A stretch of 64,000 nt of DNA, taken from contig CAVOGE010000007.1 in assembly GCA_963695195.1 (NCBI GenBank), positions 831,756 through 895,755 on the forward strand, read 5' to 3'. The notes beneath the pieces were generated by a model. That model searched no databases and was not told the DNA's origin. It saw only the letters and a program-made list of their open reading frames with translations. The translations under genes were made by a program, and so were the position numbers. This document shows, piece after piece, positions 1,033 to 47,024 of the stretch; the first letter of the stretch is position 1; each line of letters opens with the position of its first letter. Source of the DNA: an uncultured Chloroflexia bacterium (lineage in GTDB: Bacteria > Chloroflexota > Limnocylindria > QHBO01).

Positions 1033-1781
1033 ACGCTCGCCCCAATAACGCCGGCAAAGACCGAGAAGCCGTAGATCGCCGCCACGCCCGCCAGGGTCGC
1101 GACCACGATCCAGCGCGACCGGTCGGAACGGTGCGCCTCCGGCAGGAGCTCGGCCGCCCCGATGTACAGGAAGAAGCCGGCAAAGACGCCCAGCATCCCC
1201 CCGAGCACCTGGCCGGGGATCGGCAGCGCCAGACCCAGCAGCACGCCGAACACCGGTGCGATGGCCACCACGCTGACCCAGCGGTAGGCGACCGATATCG
1301 GCGTCCGCGAGGCAAGCAGCAGGCTGACGATTCCGATCCCGTCGCTGAAGCGGTGCACGATCACCACCGCACCGATCACCAGGCCGATGCCACCTCCCAC
1401 GGCCAGCGCCGCAGCGACGGCGACGCCGTCCAGGAAGCTGTGCAGGCTCATCCCCGACGCCCCGATGATGCCGACATGGCGGTGCGCGGCGTCCTCGTGG
1501 TCGAGCTCGGCCGCCGTCTCGTGGCCGACGTGCAGCGTGGTCAGCTTCTCGATCGCGTAGAACAGGAGGAAGCCGACCGCCGTGAAGACCATCGCCAGGT
1601 CGAGCGAGCCGAGCTGCTCCACCGATTCGGGGATCAGGTCGAAGTAGGCTGCCCCGATCCGGATCCCGGCCCCGACCGCGATGATCACGCCGACCGAGGT
1701 CGTCGCGCGCAGCGCCAGGAGTCCACCCGCAAGGGCGGAGAGCAGCGCGCCGGCCGAGACGAGGATGGCGGTAAGGGCCAT
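1029..1781 (-). CDS. ZIP-family metal (zinc) permease, ZupT-like
   Basis: 250-aa polytopic membrane protein with His-rich loop (HVGHETAAELDHEDAAHRH) and ZIP-like TM helices. ATG at 1781 (MALTAILVSAG). Confidence 0.8.
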   Translation of the reverse strand: MALTAILVSAGALLSALAGGLLALRATTSVGVIIAVGAGIRIGAAYFDLIPESVEQLGSLDLAMVFTAVGFLLFYAIEKLTTLHVGHETAAELDHEDAAHRHVGIIGASGMSLHSFLDGVAVAAALAVGGGIGLVIGAVVIVHRFSDGIGIVSLLLASRTPISVAYRWVSVVAIAPVFGVLLGLALPIPGQVLGGMLGVFAGFFLYIGAAELLPEAHRSDRSRWIVVATLAGVAAIYGFSVFAGVIGASV

Positions 1782-1856
1782 GGTGAGACTGAGTATCACG
1801 TCGTCCCGGCGGGTCGTCAACCCTCCCCGTGGTAGCATCACCTTCGAGTTCACCCC

Positions 1857-3174
1857 GTTGGAGCCCCGTTTGCCAGAAGCTGAATCTCCGCCCGCGCGCC
1901 GCCGACACCGAGCGCCGCGCCGCACGACCCCGGTCCCCACCGAGTCCGTCGCCCCCGAGTCCGCCACCAGCAACGGCGACGCTCCAGCCACCGACATCGA
2001 CGCCGAGGCCTCCCCGCTGCTCGCCGCCGTGCTGGCCGCCCAGCGCAGCCACCGCTTCGGCGAGATCGAGCTGCCGGTCACCATCGCGCGGGCCATCGAG
2101 AAGATGGGGTTCGTCACGCCCACCGAGGTGCAGGCGCGGGCCATCGGTCCCCTGCGCGAGGGGAAGGACCTGATCGGCCAGGCCCAGACCGGTACCGGCA
2201 AGACCGCCGCCTTCGGCATCCCGATCATCGAGAAGATCGACCCGTCGGCCCGCTACGTGCAGGCCCTCGTCCTGACACCCACGCGCGAGTTGTGCGTGCA
2301 GGTGACCGAGGAGATCAATCGGCTCGGCGAGTTCCGCAACATCACCGCGGTGGCCATCTACGGCGGCTCGAGCATGGACCGCCAGATCACGGCCCTCCAC
2401 CGCGGAGCGCAGATCGTGGTCGGCACCCCGGGGCGCGTGCTCGACCTGATCCGCCGGGGCGAGCTCCATCTCGGCAGCGTGCAGACGGTGATCCTCGACG
2501 AGGCCGACCGGATGCTCGACATGGGCTTCATCGTCGATGTCGAGACGATCCTGGCGCGCTGCCCGCGGCAGCGGCAGACCGCGCTCTTCAGCGCCACCAT
2601 GCCGTACGCCATCCTGCGCATCTGCGATCGCTTCATGGACAAGGGCGCGGAGCACATCATCGTGCGCCCCGAGATGCGCACCGTCGAGACGGTCCGGCAG
2701 CTCGTCTACTTCGTCGCGGAGCAGGACAAGGTGGCGACGCTGATGGAGCTGACCGAGACGTTCGGCTTCGATCGGCTGCTCGTCTTCCGACACACCCAGA
2801 TCGGCGTGGACCGATTGACCGCAACCCTCTCTCGCAAGGGCCGGAACGTGGCCGCGCTGCACGGCGGACTCAGCCAGCGGGAGCGCGATCGGACGCTTGC
2901 CGATTTCAAATCGGGGAAGATCCAGTACCTGGTGGCGACCAACGTGGCCTCGCGCGGCCTGGACATCGCCGACCTGCCGTTCGTCCTCAACTACGACATC
3001 CCCGAGGACGCCGAGACGTATGTCCACCGGATCGGGCGCACGGCGCGCGCCGGGCGCACCGGGACCGCCATCAGCCTCATCGGCGAATGGGACATCGCCG
3101 CCTGGGAGCAGATCCGCACCCAGGTCGGTGCCGAGATCGAAGAGGGGCAGCTCCGTCTCTACGATCGGCGCTGA
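1857..3174 (+). CDS. DEAD-box ATP-dependent RNA helicase
   Basis: Q-motif (FGEIELP...TPTEVQ), Walker A AQTGTGKT, DEAD box (ILDEADRML), SAT, HRIGRTARAG. Start uncertain (TTG 1857 or GTG ~2031); the track ORF starts inside the antisense ZIP gene. Confidence 0.8.
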
Positions 3175-3209: not shown

Positions 3210-3896
3210 ATGCCTGATCCCGACGCCATTCATCCGCAGCTGGCCACCTACGCCGCCGTCGTCATCACCAGCGTCGACTGGCTCTTCGAGCCGTACTGGG
3301 CCGGCGACCGCCTGGTCGCACGGCTGGCCGATGGCCGGGTCGATCTGACCGATGAGGCCGGCGAGCCGGCTCGCCCCGAATTCGCCGAAGCCGCCGAGCT
3401 GCTGGCCGCCGCGATCGACGCCGATGCTGCGGTGATCGACGGGGTGTGGACCGCTCAGCCGTTCGTCGGTGACGGGAGCAGCGCACGGCGACTGGCCGAG
3501 ACGCTCGCCGAGGAGGGGCTTGGCGAGGAGGTGCCGGATCCGGCCGAGCTTGAGACGCGTCGCGCGTTCGTGGCGTTCGACATCGTGGAGCTCGACGGGA
3601 AGTCCCTCACCGATGTCCCGTACCAGGAGCGCCGCCGCCTGCTCGCCTCGGTGGTCGCCGAGAACGTTCGGGTGCGCATCTCGCCGGCGGTCAAGCAGCC
3701 GCTCGGGCCCTGGCTGCACGCCTGGCGCGGCAATGGCTTCACCCACTACGTGGCCAAGCACATGAACTCGCGCTACCGGCCCGGCGAACGGGTCGATGAC
3801 TGGCTGATCGTCTCGGCTGCGGCGGAGCGCGGCCCCACGATGGTCGGGCGCATGTTCGGCCAGCGGCCGCGGAAGCTGCGCCGGATCGAGGATTGA
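3210..3896 (+). CDS. LigD-ligase-domain-like nucleotidyltransferase protein with degenerate active site (pseudo-ligase)
   Basis: 228 aa. Aligns to the LigD LIG nucleotidyltransferase core: HPQLAT (cf. EPMLAT), WLFEPYWAGDR (cf. W.FE.KWDGYR: Lys->Tyr, Asp->Ala), motif III AFVAFDIVELDG, motif IV GNGFTHYVAK, motif V WLIVS (both Lys lost). No OB domain. ATG at 3210. Confidence 0.7.
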   Translation: MPDPDAIHPQLATYAAVVITSVDWLFEPYWAGDRLVARLADGRVDLTDEAGEPARPEFAEAAELLAAAIDADAAVIDGVWTAQPFVGDGSSARRLAETLAEEGLGEEVPDPAELETRRAFVAFDIVELDGKSLTDVPYQERRRLLASVVAENVRVRISPAVKQPLGPWLHAWRGNGFTHYVAKHMNSRYRPGERVDDWLIVSAAAERGPTMVGRMFGQRPRKLRRIED

Positions 3897-4732
3897 CCCG
3901 GGCAGCGGCAGCCCCGCCCCGCCCAAGCCTGCGGAAGCTCGCCGCCGACCGGCGTGCCCGCCGGGTCCGTGTCGAGCAGGTGCTGGAGCAGCTGGGCGAG
4001 CGGTACCACCATCCACGCTGGGGCGGACCGCGCCTCGACGCGGCCGCCGAGCTGGTGCTCACGATCCTCTCGCAGAACACGGCCGATACGAACTCGTTCC
4101 GCGCCTTCACCGCGCTCCGCAAGCGCTACCCATCGTGGGACGCGGTGCTCGCCGCCCCGACCGACGAGCTGGTCGAGGTGATCCGCCCCGGTGGCCTGGC
4201 GCCGACCAAGGGGCCGCGTATCCAGGCGGTGCTAGCCGAGGTTCACGCGGAGACCGGCGGCACCTGGGACCTCTCCTTCCTTGGTGATTGGCCGCTCGAG
4301 CAGGCGCGCGACTGGCTCGTCTCCCTGCCGGGGATCGGGCGCAAGACAGCGGCGATCGTCCTGCTCTTCAACTTCGGCCGCCCGGCCCTGCCGGTGGATA
4401 CCCACGTCCACCGCGTCGCGCTGCGGCTCGGCCTGCTTCCCCCGAAGACCGACGTGCTCCGGGCGCACGACCTGCTGGAGGCCGCGCTGCAACCCGAGGA
4501 GATGTACCCGTTCCACGTCGAGCTGATCCGCCACGGCCGCGACACGTGTCGAGCCCCGCGACCGATCTGCGGCCTCTGCCCGCTGACCGGCCTGTGCCCC
4601 TACTACGCGCAGGTGCTCCGTGGAAAGGCGGCGATCAATGCGCCACCTCGAGGGCTGCCGGGTGACGGGTCAGAGCCGCGTTACCACGACGAGCTGATCC
4701 ATGGGTGGGCGCCGCCCGAGGCTCGCGGCTGA
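3893..4732 (+). CDS. Endonuclease III-like HhH-GPD DNA glycosylase with C-terminal 4Fe-4S cluster
   Basis: HhH-GPD core (ILSQNTADTNSFRAF, LPGIGRKTAAIVL) and Cys cluster CRAPRPICGLCPLTGLC. TTG start at 3893 overlaps the upstream stop (TTGA). Confidence 0.8.
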   Translation: MTRAAAAPPRPSLRKLAADRRARRVRVEQVLEQLGERYHHPRWGGPRLDAAAELVLTILSQNTADTNSFRAFTALRKRYPSWDAVLAAPTDELVEVIRPGGLAPTKGPRIQAVLAEVHAETGGTWDLSFLGDWPLEQARDWLVSLPGIGRKTAAIVLLFNFGRPALPVDTHVHRVALRLGLLPPKTDVLRAHDLLEAALQPEEMYPFHVELIRHGRDTCRAPRPICGLCPLTGLCPYYAQVLRGKAAINAPPRGLPGDGSEPRYHDELIHGWAPPEARG

Positions 4733-35283: not shown

Positions 35284-37008
35284 ATGGTCCGCTCCGCACC
35301 CTTCGCCGAGTTCGCCCGCGTCGCCGATGCGGTCGCCTCCACCACCTCCAAGCTGGCGAAACGCGACGCGCTGGCGGCGTACCTGCGGGCGCTGGCGCCC
35401 GACGACCTGCAGGCGGCGGTGACCTTCTTCGCCGGACGCCCGCTCCCGGGAGCCGCCGATCGGCTGGGCCTCGGCTGGGTTCAACAGTCGCAGTCACTCG
35501 CCGCCGCGGCCCAGGCCGACCCCGCGGCGCTCCACGCGGCCTACCTGCGCCACTCCGATTTCGGCGACGCGGCCGCCGAGCTGTTGGCGCATGCGGCCCC
35601 CACCGGCCATCCTCTGACGCTCGGAGCGGTCCGCGACGCGTTCCGGGCCATGAGCGAGACCTCTTCCACCGAGGCGCGCGTGGCGGAGATGACGCGCCTC
35701 TTCGAACGTGCGTCGCCGGAGGAGGCGCGCTACGCCGCACGGATCGCGGCGCGCGAGCTGCGCATCGGCCTGCGGGAGGGGCTGCTGGAGGAGGCGATCG
35801 CCGCTGCCTTCCAGCGGCCGCTCGGTGCGGTGCGCCAGGCGCACATGCTGCTCGGCGAGCCCGGGGAGGCGGCCGCGCTGGCCAGGGACGACCGGCTGGC
35901 CGAGGCCGCGCTCCATCTCGGCCGACCGATCCGCTTCATGCTCGCCACCCCGGTGGCCGATGCCGACGAGGTGATGCGCCGGGTCGGCGACGAGGCGTGG
36001 ATCGAGGACAAGTACGACGGCATCCGCGCCCAGCTGCATCTCGTCGCCGGCGAGGCCCCGCGCCTCTTCTCGCGCGACCTCAACGAGATCACCGCCTCGT
36101 TCCCCGAGGTCGCCCAGGCGGCCGCCGGCCTGGCGCAGAAGATGGTGATCGACGGGGAGCTGGTCCCGTATCGGTCCGGATCGGTGCTCGACTTCGCGAG
36201 TCTGCAGACGCGCCTTGGCCGGGTTGCGCCGAGCCCCGAGCTGATCGCCGAGGTGCCGGTCGTGCTGGTCGCATTCGACCTCCTGCATCTGGCAGGTCGC
36301 GACCTTCTGGAGGTGCCGCTGCGTGAGCGCCGTGCCGCGCTCGAGGCGCTCAGTCTGCCCCTGCTGACCGAAGGTCGGTTCCTCCTCTCGCACCTCGCGG
36401 CGGCGCGATCGGCCGACGAGGTGGAGCGTCACTTCGACGATGCCCGTGAGCGCCGCAACGAGGGCCTGATGGTCAAGGACCCCGATTCGGTCTACCAGCC
36501 CGGGCGGCGCGGGCTCGGCTGGCTGAAGCTGAAGAAGGCGCTCGCCACGCTCGACTGCGTGGTGGTGGGGGTCGAGTGGGGCCACGGCAAGCGGCGCGGC
36601 GTCCTCTCCGACTACACCTTCGCCGTGCGCTCGCCCGACGGCGAGTCGCTGCTCACCATTGGCAAGGCCTACACCGGCCTGACCGATGCGGAGATCGCAG
36701 CCATGACAGAACGATTCAAGGCCACGACGCTCCAGGACTTCGGTCGCTACCGGACCGTCGTCCCCGAGGTGGTGGTGGAGATCGCCTTCGACCGAATCAT
36801 GCGCTCGAAGCGGCACGACTCAGGTTTCGCGATGCGCTTCCCCCGCATCGTCCGCATCCGCGATGACAAGGCACGGGCCGAAATCGATGACCTCGCCACC
36901 GTGGAGAAGCTCTTCACCGCACAGGCGAGCGGCCGGATCCTGCTGGCACGTGGGCCGCGCGGGGAGATGGAGCGCATCACCGCCACCGGTGAGACGGATG
37001 GGGACTAG
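35284..37008 (+). CDS. ATP-dependent DNA ligase, LigB/Lig1-type (N-terminal DNA-binding domain, nucleotidyltransferase, OB)
   Basis: Intact motif I EDKYDGIRAQL, motif III/IV/V (FDLLHLAG, EGLMVKD, WLKLKK). Confidence 0.85.
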   Translation: MVRSAPFAEFARVADAVASTTSKLAKRDALAAYLRALAPDDLQAAVTFFAGRPLPGAADRLGLGWVQQSQSLAAAAQADPAALHAAYLRHSDFGDAAAELLAHAAPTGHPLTLGAVRDAFRAMSETSSTEARVAEMTRLFERASPEEARYAARIAARELRIGLREGLLEEAIAAAFQRPLGAVRQAHMLLGEPGEAAALARDDRLAEAALHLGRPIRFMLATPVADADEVMRRVGDEAWIEDKYDGIRAQLHLVAGEAPRLFSRDLNEITASFPEVAQAAAGLAQKMVIDGELVPYRSGSVLDFASLQTRLGRVAPSPELIAEVPVVLVAFDLLHLAGRDLLEVPLRERRAALEALSLPLLTEGRFLLSHLAAARSADEVERHFDDARERRNEGLMVKDPDSVYQPGRRGLGWLKLKKALATLDCVVVGVEWGHGKRRGVLSDYTFAVRSPDGESLLTIGKAYTGLTDAEIAAMTERFKATTLQDFGRYRTVVPEVVVEIAFDRIMRSKRHDSGFAMRFPRIVRIRDDKARAEIDDLATVEKLFTAQASGRILLARGPRGEMERITATGETDGD

Positions 37009-37046: not shown

Positions 37047-37661
37047 ATGAACGCGTTCGCCGTCGATCCGTTCGCTGTCTCCGCGACCCGTTCGGTTGCG
37101 GTCGACGTCTACACCGCCGCGTACCGGGTCTCAGGCCAGACGGTGACCCGTTTCGGGCGCGTCGCCGACATCGTCAACCAGATCTCCTCGACGCACCTGG
37201 TGATCGACGAGGCCACCGTCAGCGAGTACACGGATCCGACCGCCACGATATCGGCCCAGCAGGTGCTGGTGACGGTTGACGAGATCCTCTTCCTGATGGC
37301 CGCCGAGACCGACGGCGCCGCTCGCCCGGAGATGCGCATCCAGAAGCGTGCGGTACGGGCGCAGCTGGGGCTGCCCCCGTTTCGCCTCACCGGAGCGGTG
37401 CACGTGCCGCAGGGGAGCCGTCCGGCCGACGGGCTGCTCAACGTTGGGGAACGCTTCCTGGCGATGACCGAGGTGACCATCGCCTCTGGGGTGTACCCGG
37501 AGCTGGCACGCACCGCACCGGCCGTGGCGATTCAACGCCAGCGGGCACACGTGCTGCTGGTGACCGACGACGAGCAGCCCGACCAGTTGCTGGCCGACGT
37601 GCTTGATGCGGCAACCGCTGAGCGCTGGCTGAAGCCCCGCGAGAACGACGAGGCGGGCTGA
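37047..37661 (+). CDS. Hypothetical protein (204 aa)
   Basis: Strong coding-like GC3. TAGCAT box just upstream of ATG. No family recognised. Confidence 0.5.
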   Translation: MNAFAVDPFAVSATRSVAVDVYTAAYRVSGQTVTRFGRVADIVNQISSTHLVIDEATVSEYTDPTATISAQQVLVTVDEILFLMAAETDGAARPEMRIQKRAVRAQLGLPPFRLTGAVHVPQGSRPADGLLNVGERFLAMTEVTIASGVYPELARTAPAVAIQRQRAHVLLVTDDEQPDQLLADVLDAATAERWLKPRENDEAG

Positions 37662-37665
37662 CCGG

Positions 37666-38427
37666 CTACGCGCTCTGGGTCGTGGGTGCCGCCGACGGGC
37701 TTCGCGATTCCGCCTCGCCGGCCTCCAGGACTGCCTCCACGAACCGTCCGACACGCTGCGGATCCATCCGCTGCACGCGCCCGATCAGTTGGGCAAACCA
37801 CGGGGCGTTGTCCGTGGTGACGACCTCGAGGTCGGGCTCCTCCAGGACGATCCGGGAGTGCGGCCGCGGGAAGGCGATCGCCCCGGCGACGGGGATCGGC
37901 ACCCCTGGGAGTACCGTGCCCGTCCAGCGCGTCACCGCCTGCACCACCGCCCGCGCGTCCAACGACGGGTTGGTGATGCATGGCACCCATCCGGCGCGGG
38001 TCCGCGTGTCCTGGTCCCAGCTGAGCCCGCGGACGCGGTAGCTCCCGTGCCATCGGCGCGCGATCACGGCGCGCACCCCCGGCGGGCCGACCAGCAGGGC
38101 GGTCAGGTCATCAGGGACGCCGGGCAGCCGCGGGGAGACGATCAGGACGTAGCTGTCGTCGAACGCCGGAGCCAGCAGCCGCACCAGGTCATCGCCGCGC
38201 TCCCGTGTCCTGCGTCGGCCCGCCGAGAAGGCACGCAGTGCGATGGCGCAGCCGACGCCAAGTCCGAGCGCAGCCGACAGTGCGAGGAGCGCGACCGGGG
38301 CCGGGCGTGACGTCGGAATGATCGACATCAGCGCCAGGGCGGTGCAGCCCACGATGAGCATCAGCAGCGCCAGGATCACCGTGCTGCGGGTGGCGCTCCG
38401 GGTCCCCACGGGTCGAATCAGACGCAT
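37666..38427 (-). CDS. NERD-like (nuclease-related domain) membrane protein
   Basis: Two N-terminal TM helices, then DDLTALLVGPPGVRAVIARRWHGSY resembling the NERD core. Confidence 0.45.
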   Translation of the reverse strand: MRLIRPVGTRSATRSTVILALLMLIVGCTALALMSIIPTSRPAPVALLALSAALGLGVGCAIALRAFSAGRRRTRERGDDLVRLLAPAFDDSYVLIVSPRLPGVPDDLTALLVGPPGVRAVIARRWHGSYRVRGLSWDQDTRTRAGWVPCITNPSLDARAVVQAVTRWTGTVLPGVPIPVAGAIAFPRPHSRIVLEEPDLEVVTTDNAPWFAQLIGRVQRMDPQRVGRFVEAVLEAGEAESRSPSAAPTTQSA

Positions 38428-38453
38428 CGAGCTCCTCCTGCTACATTCGACAC

Positions 38454-38945
38454 ATGCCAGAGACCAGTACCGTTCTCGCGACGTTCGGGGATCCGGCCGA
38501 GGGGACGCGGGTCGACGCCGCCACCGGCTCGGGATTCACGATCACGCTCGACTCGGCCGCCGGCGGCGCATCGCGGGGAGGGCCTGGCCCCACCGAATCG
38601 ATCCTGGCGGCGCTCGCCGGGTGCACTGCGATGGATGTGGCAAGCATCCTGCGCAAGAAGCGGCAGCATGCGACCAGCTACCAGATCGCCGTCTCCGGCG
38701 AACGGGCGGACGAGCATCCCCGGGTCTATACCCGAATCGTCGTCGAACATCGCGTGGCGGGCGACGTCGAGCCCGAAGCGCTGCGCCGATCGATCGAGCT
38801 GTCGGCGACAAGCTACTGCCCGGTCAATGCCATGCTCTCGCGCGGTGTGACGGTCGAACATCGGTATCGTCTTGTGCGCGAGGGACGCGACGAGGTGGTG
38901 GCCCTGGTGGTCACCACCGGCCCACAGGGTCCGCAGCTCCCCTGA
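38454..38945 (+). CDS. OsmC/Ohr-family peroxiredoxin
   Basis: Two conserved Cys (LAGCTAMD, SYCPVNAML). Confidence 0.85.
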   Translation: MPETSTVLATFGDPAEGTRVDAATGSGFTITLDSAAGGASRGGPGPTESILAALAGCTAMDVASILRKKRQHATSYQIAVSGERADEHPRVYTRIVVEHRVAGDVEPEALRRSIELSATSYCPVNAMLSRGVTVEHRYRLVREGRDEVVALVVTTGPQGPQLP

Positions 38946-39068: not shown

Positions 39069-39929
39069 ATGGCACGCTCAATGTGGCGCGGGGCGATCCA
39101 GTTCGGGCTGGTGACGATCCCGGTCAAGCTCTACCTGGCAACCGAGAGCACCTCGATCGGCTTCAACATGCTGCACGCCGATTGCCTGAATCGGATCCAG
39201 ATGAAGATCTACTGCCCGCACCACGACGAGGTGGTTCCCCGCTCCGATACCGTGCGCGGGTACGAGTGGAGCAAGGGCCGCTACGTGGTGATGACCGACG
39301 CGGAGATGGACGCCGTCCCGCTCAAGACGGTGCGCGCCATCGAGATCGAGATGTTCGTGGACGCAAAGCGCGAGGCCCACGAGGCGCAGTTCGTCAAGCA
39401 GGCCTACTACCTGGAGCCCGATCCGATGGGTGCCAAGGCGTTCGAGCTGCTCCGCCAGGTGCTCGCCGAGCAGGGCAAGACGGCCATCTGCAAGATCGTG
39501 CTGAAGGACCGCGAGCAGCTCGCGGCGCTGAACCCGTTCGACACCACCATGCTGCTGACCACACTCCACTGGCCAGACGAGGTTCGCTCGCACACCGAGC
39601 TCAACCTGCCGACCGAGCCGATCGCCGTGAAGCCCGCCGAGCGGGCCATGGCCGAGCAGCTGATCGCCTCGATGACCGGTGAATTCTCGCCGGCCGACTA
39701 CCGTGACGACTATCGGGCGGCCCTCATGTCGGTGATCGAAGCCAAGGTTGGCGGCGAGGAGCCGGTGCCCGCCCAGCGTGTCGAGCCGACCAAGATCGGC
39801 GACCTCATGGCGGCACTCGAGGCCAGCGTGGCTGCCGCCCGCGAGGCGCGACGGAGTGCTGCCGTTGAGCCGCCCTCGGAGACCGCCGACGCCGACCAGC
39901 GGCCGGCGCGCCGCCGCCGGTCCGCCTAG
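39069..39929 (+). CDS. ku: Ku protein (non-homologous end joining)
   Basis: MWRGAIQFGLVTIPVKLY N-terminus, Ku core, basic C-terminal tail. Confidence 0.9.
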   Translation: MARSMWRGAIQFGLVTIPVKLYLATESTSIGFNMLHADCLNRIQMKIYCPHHDEVVPRSDTVRGYEWSKGRYVVMTDAEMDAVPLKTVRAIEIEMFVDAKREAHEAQFVKQAYYLEPDPMGAKAFELLRQVLAEQGKTAICKIVLKDREQLAALNPFDTTMLLTTLHWPDEVRSHTELNLPTEPIAVKPAERAMAEQLIASMTGEFSPADYRDDYRAALMSVIEAKVGGEEPVPAQRVEPTKIGDLMAALEASVAAAREARRSAAVEPPSETADADQRPARRRRSA

Positions 39930-39938
39930 CACCGCGTC

Positions 39939-40640
39939 GTGGCCGCCGAGCAGCTGCCGCTGCCGGTTGCGCCGCGTGCTCCGACTGGCGATGGCCAGGC
40001 GCGGCGTCTCCCGGCCCGCATCTCGCCGATGCTGCCATCGGCGGTGGCGTCTCCGTTTGACGACCCCGACTACCTCTTCGAGGCGTGGTGGCCCGGCGCT
40101 CGGGCGATCGCGTCGTGCGAGCGCGGCCTCCTGCGGCTGCAGGTAGCCGGCATGGCCGACGCCGAGGCGGCGTTCCCGGAGCTGGCCACGCTTCCCGCCC
40201 AGCTGGCCGAGGACGGCACGATGCTCGACGGCACGCTCCTGATCCTCGACGCCGACGGGCGTCCCGACGCCGATCTGCTGCGGCAGCGACTTGCCGGACT
40301 CGGTCGTCCCGGGCGTCCGGCCTATGTCGCCAGCGATCTGCTGTGGGCCGGCGGGCAGTCGGTGCGGCTCAACGCCTTCCGTGTGCGGCGCGCATGGCTC
40401 GAAGCGATCCTGGTGCCCGGCGACCGCGCCACGGTCGGGCGCGCCTACCGTGGCGACGGCACCCTGCTGGCGGAAGCGCTGGCCTCGATGGGCGTTGACG
40501 GCATCTCCGCGCGGCATCTCGGAGCCCGGTACCGGTCCGGCTTCGCCGGCGACGCGTGGTTGCGCGCCCCCATCGCGCCGGCCCAGCCGCGCCCGCGTCC
40601 AACGCTGGCGCTCATCCTCCGCCTGCCGCTCGGCGAGTAG
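39939..40640 (+). CDS. Second LigD-ligase-domain-like protein with degenerate active site (paralog of 3210..3896)
   Basis: ISPMLPS (cf. EPMLAT), YLFEAWWPGARAIA (cf. W.FE.KWDGYR: Lys->Trp, Asp->Pro), SDLLWAGG (motif III), DGISAR (motif IV Lys->Arg), AWLRA (motif V Lys lost). 233 aa, no OB domain. Starts 10 nt after Ku stop. Confidence 0.7.
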   Translation: MAAEQLPLPVAPRAPTGDGQARRLPARISPMLPSAVASPFDDPDYLFEAWWPGARAIASCERGLLRLQVAGMADAEAAFPELATLPAQLAEDGTMLDGTLLILDADGRPDADLLRQRLAGLGRPGRPAYVASDLLWAGGQSVRLNAFRVRRAWLEAILVPGDRATVGRAYRGDGTLLAEALASMGVDGISARHLGARYRSGFAGDAWLRAPIAPAQPRPRPTLALILRLPLGE

Positions 40641-40649
40641 CCCAGCGGC

Positions 40650-41279
40650 TCAGCGGCCCGTGTCGCGCTCACCGAGCAGCCTGAGGGCATGCTCGAGCTT
40701 GGTGAGTGGGTCCCGCTGCAGCCCGACGACATCGAGGAGCGCGGCATCGAGCTGCGCAACCAGCGCATCGTCGGGCGCCTCGCCGGCCCGGCACTCCACC
40801 TCCACCACCATCAGCCGGCCGCGCGCCTCGCCGTTGCGCATCACCGTGACCTCGTCGAGCGACAGGAGCCCGATCCGTCGAGCGCCCGCCAGGACGACCC
40901 GCTCCCGGCGGTGCTGGAGCAGGCTGAATCGCTCGACGAGGCCGAGCCGGGAGGCCGCCGCCTCGCCACCCAGCGCCACGAGCAGGTCACGAGCGGGGGA
41001 AGGGGGCCATCTGCCGAGGCTCGTCTCGGCCCCGGCCGGACCCTCGACCTCCGGACGGAGGTGGAGCGCATCCCCCGGCTCGTGGCGCGCTGGTCCCTTG
41101 AGCGACAGCGTCGTCAGCTCGCCGCGGGTCCGCAGCCGGCATGCCCAGCCCGCCGCGGCCAGGCGCAGGTCCGGGGTATCGAGGTAGCGGTCGAGCTCAT
41201 CTACCGAAGTGCGTCGGCCCGAGCGCGACGGGTCCGAGCGAATCGACGCCGACGAGCGCGCGCAGCGGTGCAACATCAT
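40650..41279 (-). CDS. CYTH-like domain protein (triphosphate tunnel metalloenzyme fold), start uncertain
   Basis: ELDRYL, CRLRTRGELTTLSLKGP, RLMVVEVE motifs resemble CYTH. Possible GTG start near 41204. Confidence 0.45.
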   Translation of the reverse strand: MMLHRCARSSASIRSDPSRSGRRTSVDELDRYLDTPDLRLAAAGWACRLRTRGELTTLSLKGPARHEPGDALHLRPEVEGPAGAETSLGRWPPSPARDLLVALGGEAAASRLGLVERFSLLQHRRERVVLAGARRIGLLSLDEVTVMRNGEARGRLMVVEVECRAGEAPDDALVAQLDAALLDVVGLQRDPLTKLEHALRLLGERDTGR

Positions 41280-41324: not shown

Positions 41325-42362
41325 TCACTCGGCGTAGCGGGCCGCGGCACCGCGGGTCGCGACAGCGACGGCCTCGCGCAACGCGGGCGGCTCGAGCACC
41401 TCGACCGCGTCGCCCCACGACAGCACCCATGGCCGGATCTCGACGATGCCAGCGACCGTCACGGTCAGCTCGAGCCGACCGTCGGGGAGATCGGCGATCC
41501 GCTGCGATCGGTGCCAGATCGACTCGCGCACGCGCTGCGCCACCGAGGCCTCGAAGCGCAGCGTGACGGTCTCTGGGGCCGTGGTGTCCGACGACCAGAT
41601 CCCCCACGAGTGCGCCAGCCATCGGTCGGGGTCGAAATCGGCGGGCACCTCGTATCGGTCAGCGGTCAGGGTCGAACTGAGGATCCGCTCCACCTTGTAG
41701 GTCCGCATCGCCTCAACGACTTCGTCAAAGCCGATCAGGTAGACCGATCGGCCGGCCGCATCGGGCTCCAGGAAGTAGGGTCGGACTCGCGCCCGCCTGC
41801 GCTCCCCACCGCTCGCCTCGTACGCGAACTCGACGACGCGACCGTCCGCCCACGCCTGCGCGACGTGCGCGAAGTTGCGGGCGAACGGCTCATTTGGACC
41901 GGCGCGACCGACCGCCAGCATCGTCGCGGCAACGTGCCGCGCGATCGGCTGGGGAAGCAGGTCGGCGAGCTTGGTGAAGGCGCTGACCACCGCCTGGTCG
42001 TACTCGTCGCTCCAGCGGGCGATCAGCCGCGAAGCGAGGAAGAGGACGACCGCCTCGGGAAGGGAGAGGCGCAGCGGCGGCAGGAAGTACTTCTTTTCGA
42101 TCCCGTAGCGACCCTTGCCGGCCTGGAAGATCGGCATCCCAAGCTCATCTTCGAGGGCGCGGATGTCCCGATACACGGTGCGGGTGGTCATGCCCGTCAG
42201 GTCTGCGATCTCCGAGACGGGAACCCCCGCGTCGTTGTGCCCGCGGCTGTACAGGATCGATGCCACGGCCAGCAGGCGCGCCAGGCGGTCGCGCTTGCGG
42301 AAGCTGCCCTCGTCCCCGTCGGCGTCGCCCCAGCGCGCCCAGTCGTCGCGCTCGTCGCTCAC
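41325..42362 (-). CDS. HTH-WYL-WCX transcriptional regulator (PafBC/YafY family)
   Basis: N-terminal HTH (VSEIADLTGMTTRTVYRDIRAL), central WYL domain, C-terminal extension. ATGA overlap with rhodanese gene. Confidence 0.8.
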   Translation of the reverse strand: MSDERDDWARWGDADGDEGSFRKRDRLARLLAVASILYSRGHNDAGVPVSEIADLTGMTTRTVYRDIRALEDELGMPIFQAGKGRYGIEKKYFLPPLRLSLPEAVVLFLASRLIARWSDEYDQAVVSAFTKLADLLPQPIARHVAATMLAVGRAGPNEPFARNFAHVAQAWADGRVVEFAYEASGGERRRARVRPYFLEPDAAGRSVYLIGFDEVVEAMRTYKVERILSSTLTADRYEVPADFDPDRWLAHSWGIWSSDTTAPETVTLRFEASVAQRVRESIWHRSQRIADLPDGRLELTVTVAGIVEIRPWVLSWGDAVEVLEPPALREAVAVATRGAAARYAE

Positions 42363-44039: not shown

Positions 44040-47024
44040 TCAGGCTCCTCCGCTGGCCCGCGGAGCGCGCGTGCGATCCCGCACCGACGCGGTCCGCTTG
44101 CCGGCGGGCCGCTTGACGGCAGTCCGCTTTCCCGGACCGCCCTTGCTGCGAGCATGCCCGGCGCCGACCGCCGCCACCACCGCCCCCGCCATGTCGGACC
44201 GTTCCGCAGAGCCTGGACCAGGTGCATGCAGCGCGGCTCGGGCGAGCTGGTCCAGCGTTCCGCGCAGGTCTCGCATCTCGCTGGGAACATCGGCTGCCGA
44301 GATGACGCGGTCGCCCCCGGACTGCTTGCCGAGGTAGAGCGCGGTGTCTGCGGCAGCGATCAGCCCGTTCTTGTCGGAGGCGTCGCCGGGAATGGTCGCC
44401 ACGCCGATCGAGATGGTGATCGGTGATGCGTCCTGCGCGGTCAGCTTCGCAACCGCCACCCGGACCCGCTCCGCAATGGTTGCCGCGGTTACGGCGTCGA
44501 CATCCGGCAGGACGAGTGCGAACTCATCGCCCCCGTAGCGGAAGACGAGGTCATCCGCGCGAGCGGCACCGTGAATCGCCACGCCGACCGCGTGGAGCAG
44601 TGCGTCTCCAGCCGGGTGGCCGAGGCGGTCGTTGTAGCCCTTGAACAGATCGAGGTCGAGCATCAGCAGCGAGACGGTTCGACGGTCGGTGGCGCGGCGC
44701 CTTCCTCTGCCGGCGGACGCGTCGCACAGGGCACCAAGGATGCGCTGGAACGCACCGTGATTCCCCAGCTCGGTCAGCGCATCGGTATCGGCCCGTTCGT
44801 TCACGGCGTGGTGTGCCTCTGCGTTGCGAAGCGCGATCGACGCCTGGCCGGCGAACAGCTTCACCAGTTCGAAGTCGTTCTCCGAGAAGTAGTTTTCGTC
44901 CGCGCCCACGCGCGAGATGTTCATGCAACCGATCACCTCTCCCGCGCTCACAAGCGGCACGACCGCCAGCGCCTCGGGATCGGCCGGCGTGCCGGGAATC
45001 TGCATGGCGCGAGGGTCGTGCAGCGCATCGTTGGCCAGGATCGGTTCGGCGTGATCGGTCGCCCAGCCCATCAGGCCACTGCCGAAGGGGACGACGTACC
45101 GCCTCACCTGCTCTGCGTGGCGCTCCCGGGTGAGGACCGGCGTCAGCACCCGGTTCACTGGGTCAGTGCGGTAGATCGACAGGTTGTCGTAGCGCACCAC
45201 CGATCGGAGTCCGTCGGCGATCGCCTCGAGGACGAGCTGGCGGTCGAGGGTCGAGTTGAGCCGCTCCGTGATCTCGAGCAGTCTGCCCTGCGAGTTGAGC
45301 TGACGGGTGAGCTCGGTCGACTGGAGCTCGAGGCGGGCATATGCCGATGCGTTGGCGATGGCCTGGGCCGCATATCCGGCAAAGATCATCATGGTCTGAA
45401 GGTCGTCGGCGCTGAACTGGTCGATCCCCAGCTTCGAGAGCGCGACAACACCGAGCGCGCGGCCCTCGAAGACCATGGGCACGACGAGCATCGACTCCTC
45501 GATCTCGTCGGTCCCTTCGATGGTGTGCCCGCGGGGGTCGTGGAGCGCGTCATTGGCGAGGATCGGCTCGCCGTGCTCCGCCACCCATCCGGTGAAGGAA
45601 CCGTCGCCGATGTCGACCTGCAGCGCCTCGCGGAAGTCGCCCTCCCCGAGGAGCCGATCAGTAAACGCGATCGGTTCGCAGATCCCACGCTCCCAGTTGG
45701 CCGAATAGACGCGGATGTCGTGGTACGCAGCCAGGGTGCTCGCCTCCGCGACGATGGCATCGGCGATGGCCTGGACATCGGTCAGCCGGTTGAGGCGCGC
45801 GGACAGGTCCTGGATCGAGCGCATGCGAGCGGCCTGGTCGGCGACCGACCGATAGAGGCGCGCATTGCTGATCGCGACCGCGGCCTGGTTGGCGAAGGCT
45901 TGCGCCAGGGCAATCTCGTCCTCGGGCCAGTCGCGGTCCCGGGTGTGGTACAGGCCGATGACCCCGACCGCGCGATCGTGGCTGACCAGCGGGACGAGGC
46001 AGGCGGTCTGGATTCCTTCATGCCGATAGACCGCCTGCAGCGCTCCGACACCCGGCCGCGCCCCGGCCTCGCGGATGACGCATGTGCGTCGCTCACGGAC
46101 TGCCTGGACCCCCAGCGACGGAGTCTCCAGGGTGAGGCCCCGGACGGTGGCGAGAAACTCCTCGCCGATGCCACGCGAGGCGGCCACGTGGAACGGGTGG
46201 TCGCCCTCCTGGATCAGCCAGAGTCCGACCTTTTCAGCGTCGAAGAGTGATCGCGTGCGGTCGACAATATCGTCGAGTACCACGCTCAGCTCGAGCTGGC
46301 TGGTCAGTTCCTGGGTCACATGTCGAAGGGCCCGCGCCCGAGTCGCTTCGCGGCGGGCGCGGGCCATGGCTCGTGCCTGGCGCACATCTGCGGCGATCGC
46401 GGCGGCGACCGTCTGAACGAATGGGCGCCGCAGCGCGTCTGCGCCGGCCGTCTGCTCGATCAGGAGCGCCCCGAGCGTGTCGCCAGCGATCGTGAGCGGC
46501 GTCACGAGCACCAGGGGAGCGTCCCCCGAGCGTGGGAGGGTCATCAGCCCCTCGTCGCCGGCCTCGCCGGCGACGCTCAGCTTCTCCGGTGGTGCAACGT
46601 CATATCCGGCGTGCGTCTCGAGCCGAAGGTCGCCCTCGTCGCCCTCGCGGGCAAGGTAGATGGCCACTCGTTCGACGGGCAGGTGCGTGCGAATTGCCTC
46701 GATCGCTCCACGGCAGACCGCGGACACGTTTGCCGGCATGCCGCCCACGGCAACGAGGCGTGTCAGCACGGCCAACTCAGCGTCGCGCGTACTCGCTGAC
46801 GTGGCTTCGCGCTCATCGGTGGCCGATCCCTCTGCCAGCAGCCGCTCGACGTCGCCGCGGCGGAACCGACGATCCCCGCGTGCATTGATCCGGAACGCGG
46901 GGAGGCGGCCAGCCTCGGCCCAGGCGCGGATCGTGTTCGGGTGGACGGCGAGCATCGCGGCAGCCTGCGCCACGCTGACGAGCACCCCCCGGTCCTCCCT
47001 GCGGTCGCTGTGCGGCTGTCCCAT
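44040..47024 (-). CDS. Multidomain regulator: MerR/excisionase-type HTH, multiple GAF domains, GGDEF diguanylate cyclase
   Basis: HTH (MLAVHPNTIRAWAEAGRLPAF), 3-4 GAF repeats, GGDEF (RYGGDEFALVL). Confidence 0.8.
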   Translation of the reverse strand: MGQPHSDRREDRGVLVSVAQAAAMLAVHPNTIRAWAEAGRLPAFRINARGDRRFRRGDVERLLAEGSATDEREATSASTRDAELAVLTRLVAVGGMPANVSAVCRGAIEAIRTHLPVERVAIYLAREGDEGDLRLETHAGYDVAPPEKLSVAGEAGDEGLMTLPRSGDAPLVLVTPLTIAGDTLGALLIEQTAGADALRRPFVQTVAAAIAADVRQARAMARARREATRARALRHVTQELTSQLELSVVLDDIVDRTRSLFDAEKVGLWLIQEGDHPFHVAASRGIGEEFLATVRGLTLETPSLGVQAVRERRTCVIREAGARPGVGALQAVYRHEGIQTACLVPLVSHDRAVGVIGLYHTRDRDWPEDEIALAQAFANQAAVAISNARLYRSVADQAARMRSIQDLSARLNRLTDVQAIADAIVAEASTLAAYHDIRVYSANWERGICEPIAFTDRLLGEGDFREALQVDIGDGSFTGWVAEHGEPILANDALHDPRGHTIEGTDEIEESMLVVPMVFEGRALGVVALSKLGIDQFSADDLQTMMIFAGYAAQAIANASAYARLELQSTELTRQLNSQGRLLEITERLNSTLDRQLVLEAIADGLRSVVRYDNLSIYRTDPVNRVLTPVLTRERHAEQVRRYVVPFGSGLMGWATDHAEPILANDALHDPRAMQIPGTPADPEALAVVPLVSAGEVIGCMNISRVGADENYFSENDFELVKLFAGQASIALRNAEAHHAVNERADTDALTELGNHGAFQRILGALCDASAGRGRRRATDRRTVSLLMLDLDLFKGYNDRLGHPAGDALLHAVGVAIHGAARADDLVFRYGGDEFALVLPDVDAVTAATIAERVRVAVAKLTAQDASPITISIGVATIPGDASDKNGLIAAADTALYLGKQSGGDRVISAADVPSEMRDLRGTLDQLARAALHAPGPGSAERSDMAGAVVAAVGAGHARSKGGPGKRTAVKRPAGKRTASVRDRTRAPRASGGA

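Follow-up and report, generated by a model that had tools for sequence, protein, structure and literature searches.

A lysine-free relative of the LigD ligase domain encoded beside Ku in Limnocylindria, with a possible role as a non-catalytic adaptor

[quoted passage not shown] We noted that, in a 64,000-nucleotide stretch from an uncultured Chloroflexia bacterium (GenBank assembly GCA_963695195.1, contig CAVOGE010000007.1, positions 831,756 to 895,755 of the forward strand; hereafter the window), the ku gene is followed by a gene for a protein that corresponds to the nucleotidyltransferase (NTase) domain of LigD-type ligases and contains no lysine. We call this protein pLIG. Its active site is dead, its NTase domain is recognisable in sequence and in a predicted fold, and it is both conserved and strictly linked to Ku. 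The reading that we lean towards is that pLIG is a Ku-partnered pseudo-ligase, a non-catalytic adaptor in Ku-dependent break repair that probably connects to the sliding clamp; the adaptor role is the part that we infer.

39069..39929, plus strand: ku, 286 amino acids (TIGR02772 Ku_bact, E=4.4e-81; PF02735, E=2.4e-43)
39930..39938, plus strand: ku–pLIG spacer, 9 nt, reading TAG CACCGCGTC GTG with its flanking codons
39939..40640, plus strand: pLIG gene, 233 amino acids, GTG start; encodes just an NTase domain of the LigD type, free of lysine

The two genes form an operon-like pair separated by the 9-nt spacer, and their coordinates are those given in a preliminary description of this DNA. As the following gene (40650..41279, encoding a CYTH-domain protein) is convergent, ku and pLIG constitute a two-gene unit. 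The Ku protein matches TIGR02772 over its full length with 272 bits (cut-off 150), and its C-terminus consists of a conserved arm, IGDLMAALEASVAAAR, and then a basic end, RRRRSA, before the stop. Across 84 related loci the gap between ku and pLIG is usually 8 nt, all values but one falling within −13 to +40. A scan for promoters and terminators found nothing. In the window the two genes share a reading frame, with TAG and three codons between them (39927..39941), so that readthrough would fuse the two proteins. This possibility was rejected because the shared frame is not conserved in the orthologues, where the gap is mostly 8 nt. One relative, P0182, resembles an open reading frame (ORF) in which the C-terminus of Ku is fused to pLIG, but it appears to be frameshifted.

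The relationship of pLIG to LigD is seen with both family models and structures. The protein matches NCBIfam NF007210 with E=1.6e-25, residues 20–210 falling on model positions 470–657, which is the NTase half only of the LigD ligase (LIG) domain; it matches TIGR02779 with E=1e-19 and the LIG domain of Mycobacterium tuberculosis LigD (PDB 1VS0/6NHX) with E~1e-15. The NF007210, 1VS0 and 6NHX matches are to the NTase part, and neither PF04679 nor tblastn detected an OB domain, in agreement with the preliminary description of a LIG-type NTase core and nothing more. The scores lie below the curated cut-offs (PF01068, 17.9 versus 26.2; TIGR02779, 70.7 versus 227.75; NF007210, 89.6 versus 989). The gene has a GC content of 0.75, and 0.86 at third codon positions (GC3).

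An AF2 model made with a deep alignment that included diverse LigD-like sequences had a predicted local distance difference test score (pLDDT) of 90.4 and a predicted template modelling score of 0.82, while an alignment restricted to the family gave a pLDDT of only 43. About 25 N-terminal residues are disordered in the model and the final ~20 residues are of lower confidence. A Foldseek search of the PDB with this model returned ATP-dependent DNA ligases only (E 1e-13 to 1e-9, TMq 0.66–0.72), including archaeal ligases, M. tuberculosis LigD (6NHX, 1VS0 and 6NHZ) and human Lig1/3/4; the top matches, to ATP-dependent ligases and M. tuberculosis LigD, had E-values of 1e-12 to 1e-13. An unrelated fold, which the preliminary description had allowed for, is thus not what the search found, and in the model the fold of the NTase (adenylation) domain is intact.

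To place the remains of the active site, we mapped the residues of pLIG, by gap-free HMMER alignment and a family profile, onto those residues of M. tuberculosis LigD that contact ATP, AMP or Mg, with residue roles taken from PMC8656161. The motif remnants are as follows.

40077..40103, plus strand: motif I remnant FEAWWPGAR, K to W50 and D to P52; W50, W51, P52 and G53 invariant in the family
40224..40235, plus strand: motif III remnant LDGT, E530 to T99 (role from PMC8656161)
40323..40346, plus strand: motif IIIa remnant YVASDLLW, Phe of AFDLL (559 by a derived numbering offset) to S132
40497..40514, plus strand: motif IV remnant DGISAR, E613 to D187 and K618 to R192
40554..40571, plus strand: motif V remnant AWLRAP, K635 to R209 and K637 to P211

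Residue by residue, the M. tuberculosis LigD positions correspond to pLIG positions in this way.

K481 (nucleophile): W50
D483: P52
R501: A70
E530 (motif III): T99
F559 (motif IIIa; numbering derived in this analysis): S132
R629: A203
K637: P211
H465: absent from pLIG
K618: R192 (conservative)
K635: R209 (conservative)
E613: D187
E479, G484 and R486: retained

HMMER aligned FEAWWPGAR of pLIG without gaps to FEGKWDGYR of M. tuberculosis LigD, placing W50 opposite the nucleophile K481, the same lysine-to-tryptophan replacement that had been proposed earlier. The counterpart of motif IV (EGVIAK) in the alignment is DGISAR, and that of motif V (WVK(I)K) is WLRAP; the motif V lysines are lost, as had also been proposed. 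As motif III reads LDGT instead of LDGE, the ribose-contacting glutamate is lost too. The phenylalanine of motif IIIa that is replaced by S132 is presumably the adenine-stacking residue, an assumption that we take from the literature on Chlorella virus ligase. The preliminary description had labelled the sequence SDLLWAGG as motif III; the sequence is present, but it is motif IIIa, and the true motif III is LDGT.

There is not a single lysine in pLIG, and covalent lysyl-AMP formation is therefore impossible. The same holds for 91 of 120 family members, and no column of the family alignment has a conserved lysine. The notion that the motif I lysine is merely shifted by an indel, against which the preliminary description had asked to check, was therefore rejected. 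The protein ends 22 residues beyond motif V, and no PF04679 match was found that would point to an OB domain or to motif VI. With 12 full-length LigD proteins as queries, tblastn found no remnant of an OB, POL or PE domain downstream of pLIG or elsewhere in the window. With no lysine and most of the ATP/AMP contacts of M. tuberculosis LigD replaced, pLIG is predicted to be catalytically dead, incapable of both ligase-adenylate formation and nick sealing, which was the central claim of the preliminary description. By each catalytic feature that we tested (the motif I lysine, the nucleotide and metal ligands and the OB domain), and by the curated score thresholds, it falls outside the ATP-dependent ligases, and it should not be filed as a LigD.

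Homologues of pLIG are numerous (709 at E<=1e-3). The best 120 of these are 201–239 residues long with 65–91% identity and, where a source is named, come mostly from Candidatus Limnocylindria or Chloroflexota metagenome-assembled genomes (MAGs). When one genome of each GTDB species was scanned, the signature [LF]FEPWWPG turned up in 249 genomes, and the best 80 loci of that scan are almost all from Limnocylindria. None of W50, W51, P52 and G53 varies in any of 121 sequences, nor in cluster representatives with only 44–50% identity. The family is mostly acidic, with a median isoelectric point (pI) of 5.2. The length of pLIG is 226–241 residues in nearly all of the 84 related loci, and the median pairwise ratio of non-synonymous to synonymous substitution rates (dN/dS) is 0.29, compared with 0.30 for Ku and 0.26 for a nearby LigB-type ligase; the absolute values are probably inflated by GC3 saturation, so that it is the comparison from gene to gene that is meaningful. 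pLIG is under purifying selection and is not a pseudogene, and on this point the preliminary description was right.

Six loci (L012, L023, L035, L037, L047 and L080) have a typical Limnocylindria Ku–pLIG block on contigs that are nevertheless filed in MAGs of other taxa (Methylomirabilota, Pleomorphomonadaceae, Zixiibacteriota, Steroidobacteraceae, Dormiibacterota and Binatia). These labels are likely to reflect mis-binning.

The linkage to Ku is strict. Ku lies directly upstream of pLIG in 78 of the 78 loci with upstream sequence, which bears out, at the level of genomic linkage, the earlier suggestion, made from the one locus, that the two proteins are partners. The pairing is kept in divergent members: P0122 (47% identity; locus L006), where the two genes overlap by 4 nt, and P0130 (45% identity; L095) both have neighbourhoods that are otherwise unrelated. 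It is also seen in P0128 (L003-5), and upstream of P0131 and P0124 (L093 and L094) there are ORF fragments that end with the Ku-typical sequence RRRK(S/T)A and a stop. As the pairing survives in divergent members and in unrelated neighbourhoods, Ku and pLIG form a conserved module.

Both ends of pLIG carry short conserved sequences that lie outside the NTase body.

39948..39968, plus strand: N-terminal motif E4-QLPLPV-10, resembling a beta-clamp-binding motif; predicted to be disordered, pLDDT ~57
40587..40637, plus strand: C-terminal tail PRPRPTLALILRLPLGE, in place of an OB domain; candidate protein-interaction motif, pLDDT 65–78

The N-terminus reads (M)AAEQLPLPV, with QLPLPV at residues 5–10, and the N-terminal peptide is AAEQLPLPVAPR. 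A hexapeptide of the QLxL type occurs in 87 of the 87 loci with enough upstream sequence, mostly as (E/D)QLxLx(V/I/L/A/T). Where it is of this type, the glutamine and both leucines are invariant, and the x positions are free (QLPLPV, QLDLPI, QLRLPV, QLDLSI, QLALAL and QLSLDI); a few divergent loci read RLxLxx. The bacterial consensus for binding the beta clamp is QL[SD]LF (PMC9690074). In Escherichia coli Hda the corresponding sequence is 6-QLSLPL-11 of an N-terminal loop, whose residues L7, L9, P10 and L11 sit in the cleft of the clamp (PMC5397184), and in mycobacterial ImuB it is 352-QLPLWG-357 (PMC10421592). The pLIG orthologue of locus L073 has exactly the Hda sequence, QLSLPL. A strict form of the pattern occurs three times in the 127,996 six-frame residues of the window, the pLIG site included, which corresponds to a chance of ~2e-5 per residue. 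We looked for the motif in the 45 residues that precede the PML landmark of the nearest cluster representatives at 50% identity; of these sequences, 14 of the 43 without lysine have it there and none of the 55 with lysine. One lysine-less relative that has an OB domain, P0138, starts MPQLSLF, which is the canonical pentapeptide. The N-terminal motif of pLIG thus matches the beta-clamp-binding pattern, suggesting that it may contact the cleft of DnaN.

The C-terminal tail has the consensus RPxLxL(I/L)xRLPL(G/D/E), includes a short predicted helix (residues 221–228) and is as conserved as the core. Across divergent members P221, L223 and L229 are invariant, and R228, P230 and L231 are at least 90% conserved. 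The tail is also present at the C-termini of the lysine-less proteins P0237, P0157, P0263 and P0178, some of which retain an OB-sized region. This behaviour fits a terminal interaction peptide. We do not claim the tail as a second clamp motif, as it has no glutamine in the right register.

Further genes around the ku–pLIG unit are conserved with it.

35284..37008, plus strand: LigB/Lig1-type ATP-dependent DNA ligase, 574 amino acids (PF04675, PF01068 and PF04679), intact and three-domain
37047..38945: DUF6812 protein, unannotated 253-residue protein (minus strand) and OsmC
40650..41279: CYTH-domain protein, convergent to pLIG
41325..42362, minus strand: HTH-WYL-WCX (PafC-like) regulator

In Limnocylindria the order of the block is LigB-type ligase, DUF6812, the 253-residue gene (on the minus strand), OsmC, Ku, pLIG, CYTH and WYL/WCX regulator. 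The ligase has motifs I (K243 YDG), III, IIIa, IV, V and VI, and lies 2.9 kb upstream of pLIG in the window. Of the 55 loci that have at least 7.5 kb of flank, 54 carry it upstream of pLIG and in the same orientation, at a median distance of 3.5 kb, and it is the sole bona fide ligase, and so the sole candidate sealing enzyme, that we found in the block. The regulator is present in 63 of 64 loci with at least 5 kb of downstream flank and may be a damage-response regulator of the block. In the window and within 10 kb on either side of 86 related loci, tblastn with the 12 full-length LigD proteins gave no match to LigD POL or PE domains. The earlier statement that pLIG stands in the place of a LigD therefore holds for these regions, but not as a statement about whole genomes. 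PADLOC gave no defence-system match for pLIG and its neighbours apart from generic WYL models. Near the block, at 44040..47024 on the minus strand, there is a gene for a 994-residue protein with MerR/HTH_17, three GAF and GGDEF domains, and large HTH_17/MerR proteins with multiple GAF domains occur at the matching relative position in L001 and L002. Three of the features reported here go beyond the preliminary description: the LigB-type ligase upstream, the N-terminal motif and a second dead-ligase paralogue in the window (see below).

We picture pLIG as the NTase domain of a LigD-type ligase that has been stripped of every means of ligase-AMP formation and of its OB domain and is kept as the operon partner of Ku. 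It would then be a non-catalytic accessory factor that works through protein–protein contacts. The best-supported specific contact would be that of the N-terminal motif with the beta clamp, and the NTase body, the C-terminal RLPL tail or both may contact Ku or another repair factor. In such a scheme pLIG would couple Ku-bound ends to clamp-tethered enzymes, and sealing would be left to a genuine ligase, for which the LigB-type enzyme encoded ~3 kb upstream is the most plausible candidate. Such an arrangement would be akin to that of ImuB, a dead Y-family polymerase that acts as a clamp-binding hub. A wider and more tentative proposal, which we regard as possible but doubtful, is that pLIG founds a class of clamp-binding pseudo-ligases that couple Ku-bound ends to the beta clamp, with end joining carried out by clamp-tethered general enzymes (LigB/LigA and polymerases) and not by a dedicated LigD. 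Equally tentatively, clamp-tethered end joining of this kind might extend over Limnocylindria and other lineages that have lysine-less LigD-like proteins.

Several points weigh against the adaptor reading. Short linear motifs can mislead, and the contacts of pLIG with Ku, DnaN and LigB are predictions from sequence. The association between the N-terminal motif and lysine loss (Fisher p=2e-6) is not corrected for phylogeny. In M. tuberculosis the C-terminal arm of Ku binds the LIG domain at D522, K579 and L580, D522 being the most critical of the LigD residues for this binding (bioRxiv 10.64898/2025.12.12.693941). These positions map to E91, A152 (arginine in most family members) and W153 of pLIG. 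Neither E91 nor W153 varies within the close family, but in divergent members E91 is not conserved (G/A/D); as the Ku-contact positions are conserved only in the close family, they speak only weakly for a contact with Ku. The LigB-type ligase is not near Ku–pLIG in the two divergent lineages L006 and L095, and its proximity elsewhere could be phylogenetic inertia within one class. Loss of LigB is also stated to leave mycobacterial NHEJ unaltered (PMC5124664). Finally, genomes with Ku–pLIG may have a canonical LigD elsewhere.

Other explanations of pLIG have to be set beside the adaptor reading. The preliminary description had proposed an end- or nick-binding protein, a sensor or cap that marks or protects Ku-bound ends without catalysis. 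We think this unlikely, and no likelier the detailed version in which the degenerate pocket can still bind the 5′-phosphate or a terminal nucleotide of DNA, the arginines at the motif IV and V positions, together with R55, holding the phosphate and W50/W51 stacking on a base. The replacements K618 to R192 and K635 to R209 are indeed conservative and do not vary, the main clade keeps R55 and the pair of tryptophans is invariant. However, a lone NTase domain is without the OB and DBD domains, from which ligases derive their affinity for DNA, the family is mostly acidic as described above, R55 is replaced by proline, alanine or glutamine in divergent members and the terminal motifs are left unexplained. 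The idea that pLIG is a negative regulator or decoy, occupying the ligase-recruiting arm of Ku or the clamp cleft and restraining end joining or Ku loading until it is displaced, seems to us quite improbable, as does its variant in which the restraint operates, for example, during growth. Such a role would account for an LigD NTase surface that is retained without activity and co-expressed stoichiometrically with Ku, and main-clade E91 and W153 stand at positions equivalent to the Ku-contacting residues of M. tuberculosis LigD; yet the search of the window and the 86 loci revealed no active LigD as a competitor, and a constitutively co-translated inhibitor of its own operon partner would be unusual.

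We give very little credence to an enzyme with a different chemistry, using a nucleophile other than lysine or a non-covalent nucleotidyl or other transfer. Invariant acidic, serine and threonine residues (E48, D133, S190 and T175) would be available for it, but the adenine- and ribose-binding residues are lost (F559S, E530T and R501A), no histidine or lysine is conserved and the superfamily has no known precedent. That the gene is an artefact, be it a pseudogene in decay or a LigD that is truncated or frameshifted, is next to negligible as an explanation. The sub-threshold Pfam score and the label 'LigD' that JGI pipelines give to homologues would be compatible with it. Against it, more than 80 genomes have the ORF intact with length and stop conserved, its dN/dS is the same as Ku's, it has new invariant motifs and no OB, POL or PE remnants were found downstream; the conservation of length and the dN/dS led us to reject it.

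Comparison with known systems places the adaptor reading in context. Like the LIG domain of M. tuberculosis LigD (residues ~450–759; 1VS0, 6NHX and 6NHZ), pLIG has a homologous NTase fold (~27% identity) with a recognisable motif scaffold, and it adjoins ku as in classical NHEJ operons. Unlike LigD, it is without any lysine, most of the ATP/AMP/Mg ligands, the OB domain, motif VI, POL and PE, and has in addition the N-terminal QLxLxV motif and the C-terminal RLPL tail. Of the two components of bacterial NHEJ, a Ku homologue and a ligase-family gene in the ku operon are thus present, while the POL and PE domains of LigD were not found in the regions searched. LigDom/LigC ligases retain the motif I lysine and the OB domain. 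They carry a LigD-type domain as a separate gene, sometimes near ku, in Actinobacteria and archaeal NHEJ (Streptomyces ligC/ligD; PMC5124664), and, unlike pLIG, are treated there as functional ligases.

Closer parallels to the proposed function come from outside the ligases. ImuB, part of the mycobacterial ImuA′–ImuB–DnaE2 mutasome, is catalytically dead, has a QLPL-type clamp motif and is thought to be a hub or adaptor (PMC10421592). Like pLIG it is a dead homologue of a DNA-repair enzyme; unlike pLIG it has a Y-family polymerase fold and the partners DnaE2 and ImuA′ instead of Ku, and its clamp binding is established by experiment where that of pLIG is predicted. Hda has the hexapeptide pattern at the same position (residues ~5–10) of a flexible N-terminus, but is an AAA+ regulator of DnaA, and the resemblance is confined to the motif. 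In eukaryotic NHEJ the body of DNA ligase IV can support end joining even when it is catalytically inactive, the sealing being left to another ligase. That holds for engineered mutants of an active enzyme, whereas the inactivation of pLIG is natural, ancient and fixed. pLIG is a pseudo-enzyme derived from the ligase domain of LigD, and a new adaptor role for it is plausible.

A full-text literature search found no description of a lysine-less or dead LigD-like ligase, of a link between Ku and the clamp, or of NHEJ in Limnocylindria. This class of abundant uncultured soil bacteria has a Ku that is tied to a ligase-domain fossil unable to ligate. If pLIG is an adaptor, to the sliding clamp, to a Lig1-like ligase or to both, it would represent a third architecture of prokaryotic end joining, and what has been proposed for eukaryotic ligase IV, a structural role without catalysis, would have a counterpart in nature. 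Should clamp coupling prove true, bacterial NHEJ and the sliding clamp would be linked for the first time. JGI names the homologues of pLIG 'bifunctional non-homologous end joining protein LigD' or 'ATP-dependent DNA ligase', and NCBI calls them hypothetical. The JGI naming is a systematic functional mis-annotation, and for this reason the NHEJ capacity that is inferred from genomes in Chloroflexota and related metagenomes is probably incorrect.

Loss of the motif I lysine is not confined to the pLIG family. The lysine is absent from 59 of the 141 nearest cluster representatives of pLIG, replaced by tryptophan in 32 of the 59 and by R, L, D, Q, N, A, I, G, S or C in the remainder. A crude neighbour-joining tree places several lysine-less groups between the WWPG clade and the ligases that have the lysine; a few other lysine-less sequences are dispersed within the lysine-bearing ligases. 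Several of these relatives carry OB domains. P0149 (332 residues, NTase and OB, lysine-less) lies directly downstream of Ku in L088; P0152, P0138 and P0186, which are lysine-less relatives with loci within the L088–L092 set, are not adjacent to Ku. These sequences suggest a broad, undescribed class of dead LigD/LigC-like proteins and, given the proportion of lysine-less representatives, dead ligases may be a sizeable overlooked protein class.

The window itself holds a second dead-ligase paralogue.

3210..3896, plus strand: second dead-ligase paralogue, 228 amino acids, NTase only (NF007210, E=2.4e-25; PF01068, E=7.8e-11)

Its motif I reads FEPYWAGDR (K to Y and D to A), its motif III IDGVW and its motif V DWLIVS, and the motif IV lysine is kept. 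No QLxLxL motif was found in this protein. The gene lies after that for a DEAD-box helicase (1681..3174) and before that for an Nth-like DNA glycosylase (3893..4732), the start of the latter overlapping the stop of the paralogue. The family of this second protein is likewise conserved and comprises 738 homologues of 225–250 residues in Limnocylindria.

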